A DNA stretch of 64,000 nucleotides, from assembly GCF_030013205.1 (NCBI RefSeq), contig NZ_CP122648.1. The stretch is one strand, 5' to 3'. How positions within the stretch are numbered: position 1 is the first letter of the stretch; each line of letters opens with the position of its first letter. A model generated the notes under the pieces. It was not told the origin of the DNA and searched no databases. It saw only the letters and a program-made list of their open reading frames with translations. This document shows positions 1 through 10,816 of the stretch, one piece after another. Position numbers and translations under genes: made by a program. This stretch comes from Escherichia coli. Lineage in GTDB: Bacteria > Pseudomonadota > Gammaproteobacteria > Enterobacterales > Enterobacteriaceae.

Positions 1-63
1 AGTTCCGGCCAGCAGGTTATAAATTTTTACAGTACGTGATTGTTCACTCATTCTGAATGCCAT
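1..63 (-). CDS. tfa: Tail fibre assembly protein Tfa, N-terminal 21 codons only (gene runs off window start)
   Basis: Reverse complement of 1-63 translates [21 protein letters not shown], matching lambda-type Tfa N-terminus; ATG overlaps stf stop (TAATG). Confidence 0.7.
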   Translation of the reverse strand, partial: MAFRMSEQSRTVKIYNLLAGT

Positions 64-1724
64 TATGCAAGCCTCACAATATAATTAAATGCGATGTTTT
101 TAACGGTGTTTTCCGCGTTACCAGCAGCGTTAACGGTGATGGTGTGTCCATGTGAACCAATCGCAACAGAGTGCGTATGAGCGCCAATACCAACAGTGTG
201 TGCATGTGCCCCAGCACTTGTAGCGGTACCTGATACTGAGTGGGTATGTGCGCCAGAAGAAGGCACAGTTCCATTCCCCACCACCGTGCCACTTGATGCA
301 CCATCAAGCCAGTCGAAATTCATACCTCCACTGTTTGGTCTCCTTAATGGAACGGTATGTGTATGTGCGCCAGCACTATTTGCAGTACCAGATACATTGT
401 GGGTATGTGCACCAGTGTTATTCGTTGATTTAGTACCGTAATCAAACGACGATGTGGTTTTCGTACCCAAATCCGTACTGGATGCGCTGGCACTGTGGGT
501 GTGCGATTTAATGCCATCCTGTTCCTGAGACAATACGGCCCGACCACTGGCGGGTTTGCCCTTGATTGTCCAGCCGCGCATATCTGGAATAACACCAGAA
601 GGATAGGCAATAGCCAGTTTCGGATATGCTGCCTTATCAAACGTCTGCCCCTGCATGATTGCATAACCTGCAGGTGGCGTATCTGATGGCCACGGCAGCG
701 GAACACCTGGCGGAAACGCTTCAATATTTGCCGAGCCGTCAAATTTTACGCCGTTAATTGTCCTTGCCGTTTTCAGCTTTGTTGCTGTAGCAGCATTGCC
801 GGATAGTTCGCCAGAAAGACCACCGCTGAATGTCTGTTTCGCCGCCCATGTCTGAGCTTCGTCGATAATTGGCACACGTCTTGTCGTAATCGTGCGGCTT
901 CCCGGATTTCCTGAAATGCGAACCATAAAAAAGCGGTAATTCGCTTTACTTGCAGTGCTGCGCCATACATGCATTGAGCGCCCCGTACCGAAATCATCAC
1001 TCGGACCAACTGCGATGTTTATCAGGTTGCCATCAATGACGCCCCAGTCCATACCGTCGGGAATATTGGTCATGTTATCAAGCCGAACGGTTATCAGACT
1101 GCCCGGCACAAAATCGTAGGTCTGCCAGTCCAGGCTGGTGAGTTTTGCCACTGCGCCACCGATCCCCATATTCAGGGGCAACGAAAAGGAGTTATACACT
1201 TCTCGCCATTCGGTCCATGTGCTCCCGGCGTAGACGCGCTCAAAAGTGCGCCCCTGTGTGGTTTCTGATTTCCCTGTGGTTGTGTAACGCTGCCAGACAG
1301 ATACACCATCAAAACGCCTGATTACTTCCAGTATCCCAAGCAATGTCGCCCCAGCAGCGTCCAGCATCGGACCGTTTGTCGCCTTTCCTGTAACACTGTA
1401 AATACCGGGGTCGGTTAGAACATTCAAATCACCTTCGTAATAACGGCTCTCTGACTGATGACCGACTCTTAACCACGGTTCCCACTGCGGATTTGATGCA
1501 TCCCAGCTTGCCGCAAGGCAGCGAACGTACATATTCCCACGACGAGTGGTATAACGTTGCGTTCTTCCATAATTCCCGCCTTCGAGGATCTCAAGCGTCC
1601 CCTGAGCAAAGCCGCCTTCCTCTGGATAATTGCGTTCATATGAAGCTATAGCCGAGCTACTGTTACGCCATAAACCAAGATGCTCAGCGGCTCCAAGCGT
1701 ATTCAGGTCTATAGTCGTACTCAA
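63..1724 (-). CDS. Side tail fibre protein, lambda Stf-like C-terminal region
   Basis: 553-aa ORF; C-terminal half has [52 protein letters not shown], His-rich GAHTH/GAHAH boxes and ends NYIVRLA; followed by tfa. Confidence 0.8.
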
Positions 1725-2000
1725 AGGGCGGGTAGTTCAAGAAGCTGTTCCGGAGCGTTTGTTGATGATCCCGATCTGCATAAAAATATTCTTATTTGCT
1801 ATCCGTATGGTAACTATGAATATGACAATATTATCTATGTTGAAAAGAAAACTAATGCATTGGGCGTTGTTGTGACGTATGCACAGACTGCACGAGACGA
1901 TGCTGAATAAGATACTACAGAGATAGTCCACTTTTTTGTTTATTTGTCGGGATAAAAACAAATTACCCCGACTCACCATGTATTAATCTTCCGCTTTAAG

Positions 2001-2384
2001 TTAGTCTTGTAGCTGCGCTGTCCTGCTATGCAGCAAAGCGGCGTACTTTAATGCGTCCTGTGCTTTCTGGAATTTAAGTGCATAGTCAGTGGCGATTTTT
2101 TCCAGTTCAGCGATTCGGTTGTCTTTGGTTTCCAGCCAATCAAGTAGCGCCAATACTTCAGGATCCCCGACATCCAACACTGTTACGCGTGATTTTTCAT
2201 AATGTTCGTCGGCAAGAGTTCGACCAATTTTGAAATCTCCATCATCACCATAACCGGAGCAGCCATAAACAACCTGTGCTCCAGATATTCGCTGAATTGA
2301 CATTTCTTCGCCGCAAATAGGGCATTTTGGTACTGGTGCAGGTGAATAACGTTCACGTAATGCCTGATAGTTGATTTTGCTCAT
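2001..2384 (-). CDS. Hypothetical protein, CPxCG zinc-ribbon-like motif plus predicted C-terminal coiled coil
   Basis: 127-aa ORF with ATG start, same strand as stf; no recognisable family. Confidence 0.4.
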   Translation of the reverse strand: MSKINYQALRERYSPAPVPKCPICGEEMSIQRISGAQVVYGCSGYGDDGDFKIGRTLADEHYEKSRVTVLDVGDPEVLALLDWLETKDNRIAELEKIATDYALKFQKAQDALKYAALLHSRTAQLQD

Positions 2385-2447
2385 TAAGTCGCTCTTCTTG
2401 TTTATGTTCTGAGATGGAGATCAGGGCGAACTCGCCCTGACGTTGTG

Positions 2448-2876
2448 TTATTCAGGAAATAACGCCCTGATATTTCCGGCCATCTGACTGGTTATCTGTG
2501 CGGTTGGTACTGGCTGTGACAGGGGGCGTTCTGTCCTGGTTTGTGTCACTGATAACGCCTCATCGTCAGCCCATGCAGCCAGTCGGTAAGCCTCTGCCGG
2601 ATTCATTTTCAGAAGTGCCAGCCCGGCCAGAAAAGCCACGCGTTGGCCGCTTTTGCGGGCTTCCGGTGTAAGGCTGTCCAGCCAGGCGCATGCTTCGCTT
2701 TCGTTCTTGACGGCCGCAGGCTTCAGATAGAAACTTATCTGAGTAAGTCTGAATGTGTTCAGTTGCTGGATGCACTGGCTGAAAATCCCGATGAACGGCT
2801 GGCTGTCGAAATCCTTCTGTCGACCGGGGCGCGATGGGGCGAGGTAGCGGTACTGGAGCAGCGCCGTGTTCTTCAT
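2448..2876 (-). CDS. Hypothetical ORF, possibly an orphan 3' gene fragment; 5' part is antisense to integrase fragment
   Basis: 142-aa ORF; only the part below ~2700 lies outside the integrase fragment; no convincing RBS for internal starts. Confidence 0.2.
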   Translation of the reverse strand: MKNTALLQYRYLAPSRPGRQKDFDSQPFIGIFSQCIQQLNTFRLTQISFYLKPAAVKNESEACAWLDSLTPEARKSGQRVAFLAGLALLKMNPAEAYRLAAWADDEALSVTQTRTERPLSQPVPTAQITSQMAGNIRALFPE

Positions 2877-3221
2877 TGTCGAATCACTTTTTCAAAAACG
2901 AAGAACAGCAAAAACCGTACCGTTCCTATTTCTGAAAGCCTGTTTGAAAAGATCAAAAAACGGGGCGGGAAACTGGTGTTTCCGACGCTGGATTATCCAT
3001 TGGTTCGCGATGTCATCAAAACGGTCGCATCTGATGTTCCTGACGGCCAGGCTGTTCATGCGCTGCGCCACACCTTCGCCAGTCATTTCATGATGAACGG
3101 CGGCAATATTCTGACGCTCCAGAAAATTCTGGGGCACGCAAAGATTCAGACAACGATGATTTATGCCCATCTTGCGCCGGATTACTTGCAGGATGCGGTG
3201 AGATTTAATCCAATAGCTTGA
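2730..3221 (+). pseudogene. Tyrosine recombinase (P2 Int family), C-terminal catalytic domain only; N-terminal half absent
   Basis: Motifs LSTGARWGE, HALRHTFASHFM, LGHAKIQTTMIYAHL resemble P2 integrase C-terminal half; frames upstream of ~2700 show no integrase-like sequence. Confidence 0.65.
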
Positions 3222-3231
3222 AGGTAGGAAA

Positions 3232-3615
3232 ATGAAAGATATTGAACATTCAGGGGAAATGGAAAAGAAAAAACGGGAGTTTATTAAAAAACTGGAATCG
3301 ATAACGCCAAGAGAATTCTTCCGTTTTTTAAATGAAAAAAACGTCACTGTGGTTTGCCTTGGGTGCGGACTGAAAGATACCCAGATAACTGCCACTACAG
3401 GTAAGTTAAATCTCCAACAACTCCTGGATGGTGAAAAAGGGGAAGAGTTTATGACGTACTTCAGGCTTGAACCAGGTCACCCAGGTGATAGTGATGCGAA
3501 TTATTACTACAAATCTTTTTGTGAGAACTGCGGTTATATAACTATGCATGCAGTGACTCCGGTATTGAACTGGTTGGGATCGCAAAAAAACCAGGAAGGG
3601 TCAGGTGATGAATGA
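3232..3615 (+). CDS. Hypothetical protein with two CxxC pairs (zinc-ribbon-like), low-GC cargo gene
   Basis: 127-aa ORF, AGGTAGGA RBS 5-12 nt upstream of ATG, 10 nt after integrase stop; CLGC and CENC motifs. Confidence 0.55.
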   Translation: MKDIEHSGEMEKKKREFIKKLESITPREFFRFLNEKNVTVVCLGCGLKDTQITATTGKLNLQQLLDGEKGEEFMTYFRLEPGHPGDSDANYYYKSFCENCGYITMHAVTPVLNWLGSQKNQEGSGDE

Positions 3616-3907
3616 GTATACTTATATCACGGGTTTTTCCATTCCGTATCCAGGAGGAATTCAGGTGAGCAATCGCAGAAGTCAGGCAAGTCGTGATGAG
3701 TTCGCTCTTGATAGCCGTGTTGCACGAATGGAGTCTGATATCTCATACATCAAGAGAGATATTGAAGAGCTGAAGAGCGATCTCAAGGATGTGAGAGGCG
3801 ATATTGATAAGATACGCACAACAGATTTCAGGCTCATGTTTGGTGCGTTGATTACTACAGCCTTGGGGTTAGCTGGCTTAATGGCGAGAGGTTTTCACTG
3901 GATTTAA
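3605..3907 (+). CDS. Hypothetical small membrane protein: coiled coil plus C-terminal transmembrane anchor
   Basis: 99-100-aa ORF (GTG 3605 or ATG 3608) overlapping upstream stop (ATGAATGA); AGGAAGG RBS; hydrophobic C-terminus FGALITTALGLAGLMARGF. Confidence 0.55.
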   Translation: MMNEYTYITGFSIPYPGGIQVSNRRSQASRDEFALDSRVARMESDISYIKRDIEELKSDLKDVRGDIDKIRTTDFRLMFGALITTALGLAGLMARGFHWI

Positions 3908-4015
3908 GATCCACAAAGTGACCACATCTCTGTTATTTGTTGTGGTTGGCTGTGTTTTTGTGTGTCTGTAAGTCTTTGATAATTATCTAACTTATTGATT
4001 TTTGTTTGTGTTTAT

Positions 4016-4040
4016 GGCCGCTCTGCGGCCTTTTTTCTTT
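4016..4040 (+). terminator. Rho-independent terminator-like hairpin upstream of btuC
   Basis: GGCCGC-TCTG-CGGCC stem-loop followed by TTTTTTCTTTT. Confidence 0.45.
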
Positions 4041-4098
4041 TCACTGTCGAAGAGTCACCGTAAAATCAACGCCATGACACTTCAGCAGAACGGATACC

Positions 4099-5079
4099 AT
4101 GCTGACACTTGCCCGCCAACAACAGCGACAAAATATTCGCTGGTTATTATGCCTGTCAGTTTTGATGCTGCTGGCGCTTCTCTTAAGCCTTTGCGCCGGT
4201 GAACAATGGATCTCGCCAGGTGACTGGTTTTCTCCTCGAGGCGAACTGTTCGTCTGGCAGATTCGCCTGCCACGTACGCTGGCTGTATTGCTGGTTGGTG
4301 CGGCGTTGGCTATATCCGGCGCTGTAATGCAGGCGTTATTTGAAAATCCTCTGGCAGAACCTGGACTACTTGGCGTCTCTAATGGCGCAGGCGTGGGGCT
4401 TATCGCCGCGGTATTGCTTGGGCAAGGGCAACTCCCCAACTGGGCGCTGGGGCTGTGTGCGATTGCTGGCGCGCTTATCATCACTTTAATACTCTTACGT
4501 TTCGCCCGTCGTCATCTTTCGACCAGTCGGTTATTGCTGGCTGGCGTTGCATTAGGGATTATCTGTAGCGCACTAATGACGTGGGCTATCTACTTTTCCA
4601 CCTCTGTTGATTTACGTCAGCTGATGTACTGGATGATGGGCGGTTTTGGCGGCGTAGACTGGCGGCAAAGCTGGCTGATGCTGGCATTGATCCCCGTGTT
4701 GTTGTGGATCTGTTGTCAGTCCAGACCGATGAATATGTTAGCACTTGGCGAGATCTCGGCGCGGCAACTGGGTTTACCCCTGTGGTTCTGGCGCAATGTG
4801 CTGGTGGCAGCGACCGGCTGGATGGTTGGCGTCAGTGTGGCGTTGGCGGGTGCTATCGGCTTTATTGGTCTGGTGATCCCACATATTCTCCGGTTATGTG
4901 GTTTGACCGATCATCGCGTATTACTTCCCGGCTGCGCGCTGGCAGGGGCGAGCGCATTGCTGCTGGCCGATGTTGTAGCGCGCCTGGCATTAGCTGCTGC
5001 AGAGCTGCCTATTGGCGTGGTCACCGCAACGTTGGGTGCGCCGGTGTTTATCTGGTTATTGTTAAAAGCAGGACGTTAG
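4099..5079 (+). CDS. btuC: Vitamin B12 ABC transporter permease
   Basis: 326-aa ORF matching K-12 BtuC; btuCED order. Confidence 0.95.
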
Positions 5080-5141
5080 CCGCAAAAAGACGGTCTATGA
5101 TTAAAAGCTAAGATTTTTACTGACCACACCCAGGAGAAACG

Positions 5142-5693
5142 ATGCAAGATTCCATTCTGACGACCGTAGTGAAAGATATCGACGGTGAAGTGACCACGCT
5201 GGAGAAGTACGCCGGTAATGTGCTGTTGATTGTCAATGTCGCCTCAAAGTGTGGCTTAACGCCGCAATATGAGCAGTTGGAGAATATTCAGAAAGCCTGG
5301 GCCGATCGTGGTTTTGTGGTGCTGGGATTCCCGTGCAACCAGTTTCTGGAGCAAGAACCGGGCAGCGATGAAGAGATTAAAACTTACTGCACCACTACAT
5401 GGGGGGTGACGTTCCCGATGTTCAGTAAGATTGAAGTTAATGGTGAAGGACGCCATCCGCTGTATCAAAAATTGATTGCCGCAGCGCCGACCGCAGTCGC
5501 GCCGGAAGAGAGCGGATTCTATGCCCGTATGGTCAGCAAAGGTCGTGCACCGCTGTACCCTGATGATATCTTATGGAATTTTGAGAAATTTTTAGTTGGC
5601 AGGGACGGATTGGTCATCCAGCGTTTTTCCCCGGATATGACGCCGGAAGATCCCATTGTGATGGAAAGCATTAAACTGGCGTTGGCAAAATAA
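5142..5693 (+). CDS. btuE: Thioredoxin/glutathione peroxidase
   Basis: 183-aa ORF, glutathione peroxidase family, between btuC and btuD. Confidence 0.95.
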
Positions 5694-6442
5694 TGTCTAT
5701 TGTGATGCAGTTACAGGATGTTGCGGAGTCTACCCGCCTGGGGCCGCTTTCTGGCGAGGTTCGGGCTGGGGAGATCCTGCACCTGGTGGGGCCGAATGGC
5801 GCGGGTAAGAGTACCTTACTGGCGCGAATGGCCGGAATGACCAGCGGTAAGGGAAGCATTCAGTTCGCGGGGCAACCACTGGAAGCATGGTCCGCAACAA
5901 AACTCGCGCTGCATCGCGCCTATCTTTCACAACAACAGACGCCACCGTTTGCAATGCCGGTCTGGCACTACCTGACACTGCATCAGCACGATAAAACGCG
6001 TACCGAACTACTGAATGATGTCGCAGGGGCGCTGGCTCTTGATGACAAACTCGGACGTAGCACCAAGCAACTTTCCGGCGGCGAATGGCAACGCGTACGT
6101 CTTGCTGCGGTGGTGCTGCAAATCACACCACAAGCCAATCCCGCAGGCCAATTGCTGCTTCTTGATGAGCCGATGAACAGTCTTGATGTTGCGCAACAAA
6201 GTGCATTAGACAAAATTCTGAGCGCGCTGTGTCAGCAAGGACTGGCGATTGTGATGAGCAGTCACGATCTCAACCATACATTGCGTCATGCGCATCGGGC
6301 GTGGTTGCTAAAAGGTGGAAAAATGCTGGCCAGTGGACGCAGGGAAGAGGTGCTCACGCCGCCAAATCTGGCGCAGGCCTATGGGATGAATTTTCGCCGT
6401 CTGGATATCGAAGGTCACAGAATGCTGATTTCGACCATCTGA
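5693..6442 (+). CDS. btuD: Vitamin B12 ABC transporter ATP-binding protein
   Basis: 249-aa ORF with Walker [10 protein letters not shown]; start overlaps btuE stop. Confidence 0.95.
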
Positions 6443-6519
6443 TTTCATTAGTATCTTGAAAATCGGGTAATTACGACGCTAAATTAATGCAAGAATAAAA
6501 AACAGAGGAACCGTACGGA

Positions 6520-6984
6520 ATGCGTTTCTGCCTTATTTTGATCACAGCACTGTTTCTGGCCGGGTGTAGCCACCATAAAGCACCGCCGCCAAATGCCAGA
6601 CTTTCTGATTCGATTACCGTTATTGCCGGTTTGAACGACCAGCTACAGAGCTGGCATGGCACGCCGTATCGTTATGGTGGCATGACGCGGCGCGGTGTGG
6701 ACTGTTCGGGGTTTGTGGTTGTGACGATGCGCGATCGTTTCGATTTGCAGCTGCCCCGAGAAACTAAAGAACAAGCCTCTATCGGCACGCAAATTGATAA
6801 AGACGAGTTGCTGCCAGGTGACCTGGTCTTTTTCAAAACGGGCTCCGGACAAAATGGTTTGCATGTAGGTATTTACGATACCAACAACCAATTTATCCAC
6901 GCCTCTACCAGCAAGGGAGTGATGCGTTCCTCACTTGATAATGTCTATTGGCAGAAAAATTTCTGGCAGGCGAGACGAATCTAG
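6520..6984 (+). CDS. nlpC: NlpC/P60 family lipoprotein (putative peptidoglycan endopeptidase)
   Basis: 154-aa ORF, lipobox LAGC, NlpC/P60 Cys motif. Confidence 0.9.
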   Translation: MRFCLILITALFLAGCSHHKAPPPNARLSDSITVIAGLNDQLQSWHGTPYRYGGMTRRGVDCSGFVVVTMRDRFDLQLPRETKEQASIGTQIDKDELLPGDLVFFKTGSGQNGLHVGIYDTNNQFIHASTSKGVMRSSLDNVYWQKNFWQARRI

Positions 6985-7230
6985 TATGTCGAAAAATTGA
7001 CGGCGATGATACATCGCCGTCAATTTACTCCAGAATACGGTAGTATTTTGCAGACAAAAATTCCGTAAATGGATTATTCGTTTATAATCAGGATAATCTA
7101 AAAAAAGGACCCCTGAAAAAGTGGTTAACATGGAACAAATGAAAGTTACTCCTTCTGTAATTGTTATGTCTTATGGCCTCATCCCTTTTAGCCGGATACT
7201 GAAAAACATCCTTCGAGAGGGACGGTTACC

Positions 7231-7944
7231 ATGAAGATTTTTTTGGAGAATCTTTATCATTCTGATTGCTATTTCCTGCCGATAAGAGATAACCAGCAAG
7301 ACCTTGTCGGCGTTGAGTTAATTACCCATTTCTCCAGTGAAGATGGTACGGTTCGTATCCCGACGAGTCGGGTTATAGCGCAACTTACCGAGGAGCAACA
7401 TTGGCAATTATTTTCAGAGCAGTTGGAATTACTAAAATCATGCCAACACTTTTTTATTCAACATAAACTCTTTGCCTGGCTTAATTTAACGCCACAAGTG
7501 GCTACTTTATTATTAGACAGGGATAATTACGCAGGCGAACTATTAAAATATCCGTTTATTGAACTGTTGATTAATGAGAATTACCCGCATCTCGATGAAG
7601 GAAAAGATAATCGCGATCTTTTTTCCTTATCGCAAATGTATCCCCTTGTGTTAGGTAATTTGGGCGCAGGCAATAGCACAATGAAAGCGGTTTTTGATGG
7701 TCTTTTCACCCGCGTCATGCTGGATAAAAGTTTTATTCAGCAACAAATCACGCATCGCTCCTTCGAACCGTTTATTCGTGCGATCCAGGCGCAAATTTCC
7801 CCATGTTGCAATTGCATCATCGCGGGGGGCATTGATACGCCAGAAATAATGGCACAGATTACCCCCTTTGATTTCCATGCTCTCCAGGGATGCCTGTGGC
7901 CTGCCGTTCCCATAAATCAGATAACGACGTTGGTTCAGCGATAA
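7231..7944 (+). CDS. ydiV: Anti-FlhD4C2 factor, degenerate EAL-like protein
   Basis: 237-aa ORF matching K-12 YdiV; synteny. Confidence 0.9.
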   Translation: MKIFLENLYHSDCYFLPIRDNQQDLVGVELITHFSSEDGTVRIPTSRVIAQLTEEQHWQLFSEQLELLKSCQHFFIQHKLFAWLNLTPQVATLLLDRDNYAGELLKYPFIELLINENYPHLDEGKDNRDLFSLSQMYPLVLGNLGAGNSTMKAVFDGLFTRVMLDKSFIQQQITHRSFEPFIRAIQAQISPCCNCIIAGGIDTPEIMAQITPFDFHALQGCLWPAVPINQITTLVQR

Positions 7945-7967
7945 CCCTCCTGTTTGCTGGTGTTTAA

Positions 7968-9443
<1,476 letters not shown>

Positions 9444-9446
9444 AGG

Positions 9447-9638
9447 CTACTTGGTCAACAGCAGCTTGCCAGCCTGAGTTTTACGGAGCAGATATTCTTG
9501 CCCGTCATGATCGATAATCAGTTTGCCATCCGGACCTAACAGTGTCTGGCTGGTAATTCGCCGAATGGGCTGTGGGGAAGCGGTCTTGTGATTGGCATCC
9601 GTTTCAGGCGTGAGTTTTCTGCTATCCGTATAACGCAT
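9447..9638 (-). CDS. ydiE: HemP-like small protein
   Basis: 63-aa protein from internal ATG of 72-aa ORF (MRYTDSRK...), matches K-12 YdiE. Confidence 0.8.
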
Positions 9639-9769
9639 AAAGATTAATAATAATTGATATAACAATGATTCTTATTATCAATATTATGGCGGGCCAGAGC
9701 AAGCAGTAATTTGTTGAGAAGACAACAAGTTGCGCAGAAATGCCCATTCCGTCAGGAATGGGCACGCAT

Positions 9770-10816
9770 TCAGAAACGGGTATCAACTGCAGAGGCGAGT
9801 TTTTCGACCAGGCGTTCGGTATCTTCCCAGCCCAGACACGGGTCGGTAATCGATTGACCGTAAGTGAGCGGCTGACCGCCGGCGATTTTTTGCGTTCCTT
9901 CGCGCAGGAAACTTTCCGCCATAATTCCAGCAATCGCCGTAGAGCCATTGCGGATTTGCTGACAAATATCCTCACAAACTTCTAACTGGCGACGGTGCTG
10001 CTTCTGGCAGTTACCGTGGCTGAAATCCACCACCAGATGTTCAGGTAAATCAAACTCGTGCAGCGTATCGCAGGCTGCGGCGATATCATCGGCATGATAA
10101 TTCGGTTTTTTGCCGCCACGCATAATAATGTGGCCATACGGGTTGCCGCTGGTCTGATAGATGGTCATCTGACCATTTTTGTCTGGCGAGAGGAACATAT
10201 GGCTGGCGCGGGCTGCGCGGATAGCATCCACGGCAATCCGCGTGTTGCCATCGGTACCATTTTTAAAACCTACCGGACAGGAGAGTGCCGAAGCCATTTC
10301 ACGGTGGATCTGACTTTCGGTAGTACGTGCGCCAATCGCACCCCAACTGATTAAATCAGCAATAAACTGACCGGTCACCATATCGAGGAACTCAGTCGCG
10401 GTAGGGACGCCCAGCTCATTTACCTGTAAAAGTAATTTGCGCGCCAGCTCCAGACCGTGATTTACCCGATAGCTGCCGTTTAAATCTGGATCGGAGATTA
10501 GCCCTTTCCAGCCGACAACAGTTCGTGGTTTTTCAAAATAGGTGCGCATTACGATTTCCAGCCGTGACTGGTACTGGTTGCGCAGCGACTGCAGACGGGT
10601 GGCGTACTCCATTGCAGCGGTGAGATCGTGGATCGAGCAGGGGCCAATAATGACCAACAGTCGCTTATCTTCACCATTCAGTATTTTTTCAATTCTGCGG
10701 CGGGAGTCGGTGACATGGGTGGCGACGCCAGGCGTTACGGGATACCGTAGCGCGAGTTCGGCGGGCGTTACCAGGCTCTCAATACGCGCAGTACGGAGTT
10801 CGTCAGTTCTGTTCAT
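9770..10816 (-). CDS. aroH: DAHP synthase, Trp-sensitive
   Basis: 348-aa ORF matching K-12 AroH. Confidence 0.95.
   Translation of the reverse strand: MNRTDELRTARIESLVTPAELALRYPVTPGVATHVTDSRRRIEKILNGEDKRLLVIIGPCSIHDLTAAMEYATRLQSLRNQYQSRLEIVMRTYFEKPRTVVGWKGLISDPDLNGSYRVNHGLELARKLLLQVNELGVPTATEFLDMVTGQFIADLISWGAIGARTTESQIHREMASALSCPVGFKNGTDGNTRIAVDAIRAARASHMFLSPDKNGQMTIYQTSGNPYGHIIMRGGKKPNYHADDIAAACDTLHEFDLPEHLVVDFSHGNCQKQHRRQLEVCEDICQQIRNGSTAIAGIMAESFLREGTQKIAGGQPLTYGQSITDPCLGWEDTERLVEKLASAVDTRF

Follow-up and report, generated by a model that had tools for sequence, protein, structure and literature searches.

Organization of the ihfA–btuC locus

The analysed stretch, called here the window, covers 64,000 bp of the Escherichia coli chromosome, in which btuC, btuE, btuD, nlpC and ydiV are located from position 4,099 on. 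To the left of btuC the following features were delineated.

63–1724, minus strand: remnant of a tail-fibre gene belonging to the degraded prophage; GAHTH / HxH motifs recur in it
2013–2384, minus strand: ead/Ea22-like gene, annotated as partial (phrog_368); together with parMR, cargo of the P2 gpA–portal hotspot
2448–2739, minus strand: parR', remnant of a parR-like partition gene, codons 8–103 plus stop relative to the intact 103-aa protein (phrog_2515, partition protein, E = 1.4e-52)
2643–2735, plus strand: spurious in-frame 5' extension of int', antisense of the parR-like gene
2736–2739, no strand: deletion joint, TATC microhomology common to both parental flanks, whose alignments overlap by 4 bp
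2736–3221, plus strand: int', 3' remnant of a P2-family tyrosine integrase gene, 161 C-terminal residues plus the stop codon
3232–3615, plus strand: orfA, 127 aa (phrog_4293), two invariant CxxC pairs (zinc-ribbon-like); 15 homologue clusters
3608–3907, plus strand: orfB, 99 aa, coiled coil and C-terminal hydrophobic helix (membrane helix), weak XhlA-like match
3908–4015, no strand: phage-derived attachment-site arm (attL side); 3908–4300 corresponds to 9894–10286 of the O104:H4 2011C-3493 prophage sequence (L008) with 99.5% identity and is common to both despite the other cargo cassette there
4016–4040, plus strand: att core, 25-bp direct repeat GGCCGCTCTGCGGCCTTTTTTCTTT, a duplicate of the ihfA terminator with a terminator-like hairpin; prophage end adjoining btuC

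A second copy of the att 25-mer is situated directly after ihfA, at the other prophage end, which in strain K_EC180 lies approximately 17 kb to the left. Since the 25-bp repeat stands at both ends and thus delimits the element, the prophage is placed between ihfA and btuC. Genes remaining in it are hok, ogr, the Hxs radical-SAM cluster, an IS66-family element, partial gpD, a partial tape-measure gene, genes for a tail protein, a transferase and tail-fibre assembly, partial tail-fibre genes, the partial Ea22-like gene, parR', int' and two small ORFs. By gene content the remnant has no capsid, terminase, portal, lysis or baseplate genes and no C, cox or gpA, all of which are present in intact relatives. 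Thus, att-repeat bounds at a known integration site are combined with P2-type genes from which essential modules are missing, as expected for a defective P2-like prophage. Its left end, outside the window (L005 33203–37444), carries, as additional cargo, the hok/gef toxin gene and a complete His-Xaa-Ser (HxsDBCA) cluster between ogr and the IS66-family element.

Intact P2-like prophages occupy the same position between ihfA and btuC in O104:H4 2011C-3493 and TUM9803. They share with the window element both the integration site and the att arm, and int of O104:H4 is 99.4% identical at the nucleotide level to window 2736–3218. The ParM/ParR cargo of these prophages adjoins a gpA gene of 2,841 nt, and TUM9803 has the same orfA–orfB pair. 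Both retain C, cox, the early operon and a full-length int (323 aa in TUM9803, 324 aa in O104:H4) and TUM9803 also retains the morphogenesis genes, whereas all of these are lost in the window element.

The catalytic domain of a P2-type integrase

The open reading frame at 2643–3221 of the plus strand (192 codons, TTG start) matches the Pfam family Phage_integrase (PF00589) with its residues 32–178 (model positions 2–169 of 172, i-E = 3.1e-20) and also PHROG integrase families (phrog_1, E = 8.4e-45). Its integrase-derived part, int', corresponds to residues 163–323 in full-length numbering, or 150–310 of the 310-aa protein annotated in strain ETEC6333, and comprises the complete catalytic (CAT) domain only. 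In a six-frame comparison of the tblastn type, residues 150–310 of the ETEC6333 protein were found at window 2736–3218 with 100% identity over 161 aa, and the 3' part of int in sister swine ETEC genomes is likewise 100% identical to int'. Conserved motifs are located at 2823–2843 (TGARWGE), 3057–3071 (HALRH) and 3129–3170 (LGHAKIQTTMIYAH, the LGH...Y.H region). All six catalytic residues, that is the pentad R-K-H-R-H and the tyrosine nucleophile, are kept (R at 2832–2834, K at 2901–2903, H at 3057–3059, R at 3066–3068, H at 3135–3137 and Y at 3162–3164). In the numbering of the O104:H4 protein these are R195, K218, H270, R273, H296 and Y305, and they are invariant in the alignment with Int of Peduovirus P2.

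Relative to the proteins of TUM9803 and O104:H4, the first 162 residues are missing from int', which means the arm-binding (AB) and core-binding (CB) domains; relatives in L009–L013 carry the PF24624 Int_N domain at this place. A tblastn search with the N-termini of the two full-length relatives detected no corresponding coding DNA in six frames of the 64-kb window (best E = 0.9). Since this DNA is absent from the window, no frameshift can restore int. NCBIfam gave sub-threshold C-terminal matches only (Xer and integron-integrase models) and no curated family for int' or the small ORFs.

Over their whole length the full-length relatives are approximately 48% identical to integrases of Peduovirus P2, Wphi and related phages, and their best match in the phage collection reaches 56%. 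The PDB was searched with a full-length relative, which agrees with the window in every one of its C-terminal 161 aa; the best matches were P2 integrase (5C6K, E = 7e-79), the P2 catalytic domain (5DOR, E = 2.3e-51) and HP1 integrase (1AIH, E = 9.5e-45). Thus, int' shares with P2 Int and HP1 Int a homologous CAT domain with the entire R-K-H-R-H-Y active site and, as in P2, int of intact relatives is placed downstream of the C repressor and adjoins att of the P2-like prophage. Unlike P2 and HP1 Int, the window copy has no residues 1–162, no start codon and no promoter, being a gene fragment that is presumably unable to recognise att sites. Integrases of this group are reported to need the arm-binding domain for their mobility function (tyrosine-recombinase survey, PMC8138268). 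The crystallised construct 5DOR starts at the equivalent of G149 in the 310-aa annotation and the window fragment at Y150, so that the cut lies within the CAT construct by a single residue; that the deletion hit the boundary between CB and CAT is a coincidence. The window copy derives from a member of the IntP2 subgroup, and without CB and AB domains it should be labelled an integrase gene remnant, not an integrase.

The sequence-only reading had described this region as a fragment of a P2-family integrase with conserved catalytic motifs, reduced to its catalytic domain and deprived of about 165 N-terminal residues. Its first part agrees with the PF00589 and PHROG matches and the motif positions found here, its family assignment with the similarity to P2 and Wphi and with the three structures, and its estimate of the loss with the count given above and the absence of DNA coding for CB and AB from all frames of the window.

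Deletion joint and its parental sequences

The same reading had proposed a recombination joint near 2700. The joint is real and lies just upstream of the catalytic domain; its position is corrected to 2736–2739 by the split of megablast matches and the shared TATC. When window 1900–4100 was compared with 5,426 complete E. coli genomes, the matches divided sharply at this point. Genomes having the right flank only align with query positions 837–2201 (window 2736–4100), annotated as phage integrase, two hypothetical proteins and btuC. Those having the left flank only align with positions 1–840 (window 1900–2739), annotated as ead/Ea22-like and plasmid partitioning/stability protein, and continue there into parM–gpA.

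Both flanks were found on one molecule in ETEC6333 (L002), 4.6 kb apart, and the intervening DNA completes both clipped genes. Window 1986–2739 corresponds to L002 2640–3393 (100% identity) and window 2736–4300 to L002 8001–9565 (99.9%); base-by-base comparison revealed TATC at both parental breakpoints. Absent from the window are 4,611 bp (L002 3394–8004), which include codons 1–7 of the parR-like gene (minus strand), parM, the gene of a 946-aa gpA-like replication endonuclease, a 72-aa ORF and the 5' part of int. As a test for inversion or translocation, the 64-kb window was searched for the deleted 4.6 kb and the Int N-terminus at another place, and neither was found.

The flanks are thus collinear with undeleted ETEC6333 and share a short TATC at the breakpoints, as is characteristic of microhomology-mediated (illegitimate) deletions. 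Neither an IS end nor a recombinase site is present there: the nearest IS1 end, which belongs to the sister strain, is approximately 750 bp away (IS1 in L002 ends at 2639, the breakpoints being at 3393/3394 and 8000/8004), and the breakpoints are unlike the att core. An IS1-mediated adjacent deletion was considered and rejected, as neither breakpoint is in contact with this element. That 4 bp are shared and no IS end adjoins them leads us to infer a microhomology-mediated mechanism, even if so short a microhomology is no proof by itself. Since ETEC6333, which carries IS1, is a sister and not the literal ancestor of the window, which has no IS1, the direction of the event can be deduced only from gene integrity: as the extra 4.6 kb complete both clipped genes, a deletion here, and not an insertion in ETEC6333, most probably took place.

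A junction-spanning query (2600–2880) was fully covered in exactly 7 of the 5,426 complete genomes. All seven are closely related swine isolates, namely K_EC180 (annotated as South Korea) and six strains of the ETEC series, and window 1900–4100 is 100% identical to each of them. Positions 1–10,101 of the window match K_EC180 but for one indel in ydiV (7231–7944), which is intact in the window (237 aa) and frameshifted in K_EC180, the sole difference over 10.1 kb.

Left flank of the joint

Deletion removed from the parR-like gene its first seven codons, the partner gene parM and the upstream region. PGAP nevertheless sets a start for parR' at TTG 2762 and annotates the resulting 104-aa protein as intact. 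Chimeric parR frames were also created: ATG 2876 would give an ORF of 142 aa starting antisense to int', and a promoter-like site, TTGATG-16-GATAAT, is present upstream of this ATG on the minus strand (3019–2992). On the opposite strand, the in-frame extension that starts from TTG 2643 had been noticed to be unlike an integrase, and it proved to be the antisense of codons 8 to ~38 of the parR-like gene.

The gpA–portal interval is a described hotspot of P2-like phages (PMC9122126). A plasmid-type ParM/ParR partition module, which is an unusual cargo for an integrating phage, and the Ea22-like gene are located in it (window 2001–2739, L002 3102–4377, L008 422–1700). For the DNA to the right of the tail-fibre remnant, from 1731 on, the homologous stretch of an intact P2-like prophage flanks the portal gene (window 1731–2739 corresponds to L003 7832–8840). 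The junction at ~1725–1731 implies a further large deletion, by which the whole morphogenesis block would have been lost in one event.

Other deletions in the same lineage

ETEC6333 itself bears the trace of an earlier loss. Compared to the O104:H4 prophage, 3,677 bp are gone from it, including the early operon, cox, the C repressor, the Pc region and int codons 1 to ~8, with the junction GGGT[A/G]TCT (L002 7538–7546 versus L008 4861–4869 and 8538–8546). The 310-aa Int of ETEC6333 was tried as the full-length form and rejected: homology to the genes of TUM9803 and O104:H4 begins inside the ORF and the N-terminus MSIKSIPGGY... is missing. The 310-aa “phage integrase” of genomes of the ETEC6333 type is therefore itself clipped N-terminally, with an internal Met as start and the native promoter region lost. 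A third, independent deletion, with a 13-bp overlap, extends in ETEC4068 from inside gpA to the end of orfB (L006 7275–7287) and takes int, orfA and most of orfB. Three separate deletions, with overlaps of 4, ~8 and 13 bp, were thus registered in one swine ETEC lineage.

The downstream pair orfA–orfB

The two genes downstream of int' overlap by 8 nt and are intact; orfA begins 10 nt past the int stop codon and has its own AGGA ribosome-binding site. No significant Pfam match was obtained for orfA, and only weak XhlA/coiled-coil Pfam matches for orfB. PADLOC assigned no match to orfA, orfB, the Ea22-like gene or parR'. An AlphaFold2 model of orfA (pLDDT 72.8) had no meaningful match in the PDB (best E = 0.19), and in AFDB it retrieved mostly uncharacterised proteins; a few weak hits (E > 0.003) carried HNH endonuclease, Zn-ribbon or DNA-binding annotations.

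P2-like prophages of E. coli, Serratia, Raoultella and Aeromonas have the pair conserved in two arrangements. In E. coli TUM9803, Serratia and Raoultella the order is C-int-orfA-orfB-att, and in the last two orfA starts before int has ended, with the stop of int in the overlap; in Aeromonas it is C-(267-aa gene)-orfA-orfB-int-att. Relative to TUM9803, dN/dS is 0.21 for orfA and 0.15 for orfB, which means purifying selection, and dS is 0.72 for the CAT region of int versus 0.12–0.18 for the cargo. In O104:H4 2011C-3493 an unrelated 131-aa ORF replaces orfA–orfB between the int stop and the att arm. This is a cassette swap with sharp borders (window 3219–3907 versus L008 9484–9893), with int (99.4%) and the att arm (99.5%) conserved on its sides. 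In P2-like phages the int–att interval reportedly serves as a minor hotspot for defence genes (bioRxiv 10.64898/2026.02.27.708500), and the cI–int interval as a hotspot in K139/PhiO18P-like phages (PMC9122126). Based on the conserved pairing in these hotspot positions, orfA–orfB may be regarded as a candidate exclusion or defence module.

Expression potential of int'

Upstream of the codon for catalytic Arg only two in-frame starts are available, TTG 2643 and TTG 2763, and neither is preceded by a Shine–Dalgarno-like sequence. The second one is used in the PGAP/RefSeq annotation, where the CDS 2763–3221 (152 aa, “tyrosine-type recombinase/integrase”) is listed as intact. A standard scan of the plus strand found no sigma-70-like promoter at 1900–3232, nor did a laxer one, admitting 8/12 matches, at 2380–3240; the native Pc/C promoter region was deleted already in the precursor. 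As int' has no native start codon, ribosome-binding site, promoter or DNA-targeting domains, it probably cannot integrate or excise. It is regarded as a pseudogene remnant which, judging from these elements, is probably not expressed.

At the same time int' shows no mutational decay. The lack of such decay fits a recent deletion and is also compatible with retention by selection. Since int' is 100% identical to intact copies, the deletion can be considered recent, and the restriction of the allele to seven closely related genomes fits this. It had further been suggested that the truncated gene may provide promoter or operon context for the two downstream ORFs. Operon context does exist in intact relatives, in the form of the lysogenic C-int-orfA-orfB block, which resembles a transcription unit, but the promoter part of this suggestion did not hold, with Pc/C gone and no plus-strand site found; nothing indicates that int' supplies a promoter.

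Discussion

The data obtained make it highly probable that a P2-like (Peduoviridae) prophage left int' behind as a dead 3' piece of its integrase gene, cut by an illegitimate deletion of 4,611 bp in the course of stepwise decay. Several other explanations have to be weighed against this one. That the joint is a sequencing or assembly artefact, or that the gene is frameshifted but complete, has only a priori support and a practically negligible chance of being true: an artefact is ruled out, as the identical junction occurs in seven independent complete genome assemblies, and the N-terminal coding DNA that a frameshifted full-length gene should contain is found in no frame of the window. An origin of the joint by IS-mediated recombination, by a site-specific event or by homologous exchange between two different prophages is very improbable. 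The remnant does contain IS66 and transposase fragments, IS1 of sister strains is not far to the left, and P2-like prophages are mosaic, as can be seen from the different dS values of int and cargo. However, no IS end adjoins either breakpoint, in one sister genome both flanks belong to a contiguous, collinear stretch at almost complete identity, and the breakpoints have in common only TATC, unlike the 25-bp att core. Still less credit, close to none, is given to an expressed and active protein consisting of the catalytic domain only, which could operate as a sequence-relaxed nicking/topoisomerase enzyme or be dominant-negative towards incoming P2-like integrases. Isolated catalytic domains of lambda Int keep topoisomerase activity; the six catalytic residues of int' are preserved, the fragment almost exactly matches a stably folding crystallised construct (5DOR, 1AIH), and PGAP predicts a CDS. 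Against such a protein speak the TTG starts without Shine–Dalgarno-like sequence, the failure to find a promoter-like site, the confinement of the allele to seven closely related genomes, and the loss of CB and AB, on which recognition of sites and synapsis depend (PMC8138268).

Persistence of the intact orfA–orfB pair next to int' requires separate consideration. One may suppose that decay was not neutral and reduced the remnant to cargo that benefits the host, zinc-ribbon-like orfA and orfB with its coiled coil and membrane anchor, as an exclusion or anti-phage module of the lysogeny operon in the int–att (in Aeromonas C–int) hotspots for defence genes of P2-type phages. A cryptic start located within int' or before it would then drive transcription of the pair, with int' kept as a leader; we consider this unlikely. 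Quite unlikely, too, is that int' itself was retained as the 5' leader or promoter-bearing region of orfA–orfB, the remnant being a domesticated cargo module. These genes are intact and closely spaced to int with a ribosome-binding site of their own, and purifying selection acts on them in relatives; they invariably stand before or after int in the C–int direction and occupy an interval reported to host defence genes. Nevertheless, plus-strand scanning gave no sigma-70-like site for such a leader even under the laxer setting, Pc/C having been lost earlier, the ETEC4068 deletion of these very genes argues against strong selection in this lineage, and the recent date of the deletion accounts equally well for the pair being intact.

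Returning to a dead fragment produced by deletion, we consider the following course of events highly probable. A P2-like prophage integrated into the ihfA terminator, between ihfA and btuC, and then decayed in steps, the earlier 3,677-bp loss taking C, cox, the Pc region and the start of int. After that, in the lineage of the window, one microhomology-mediated deletion at the shared TATC, in the simplest reading independent of RecA and recombinases (slippage or end-joining), removed 4,611 bp and fused codon 8 of the divergent parR-like gene to codon 163 of int. The remnant would now be locked in the chromosome, unless a related phage supplied Int and Cox in trans.

The same features characterize cryptic E. 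coli prophages whose integrases were truncated by stepwise deletion: att repeats are kept, essential genes are gone, IS elements have come in and close relatives carry nested deletion alleles. There is no difference in kind between them and the element described here; only the site, the element and the breakpoints are specific. Erosion of cryptic prophages by short-homology deletions is already well known and the allele is already present in public genomes, so that the locus represents ordinary genome decay, not a new system, and adds nothing new to integrase biology. The value of the finding lies mainly in annotation. RefSeq/PGAP lists int' as an intact integrase of 152 aa and the clipped parR as an intact protein, and programs that detect mobile elements by their integrases would therefore register a functional recombinase at this locus, though the element presumably cannot move by itself. 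The locus also offers a clean example, dated by phylogeny, of stepwise prophage erosion via short-homology deletions.
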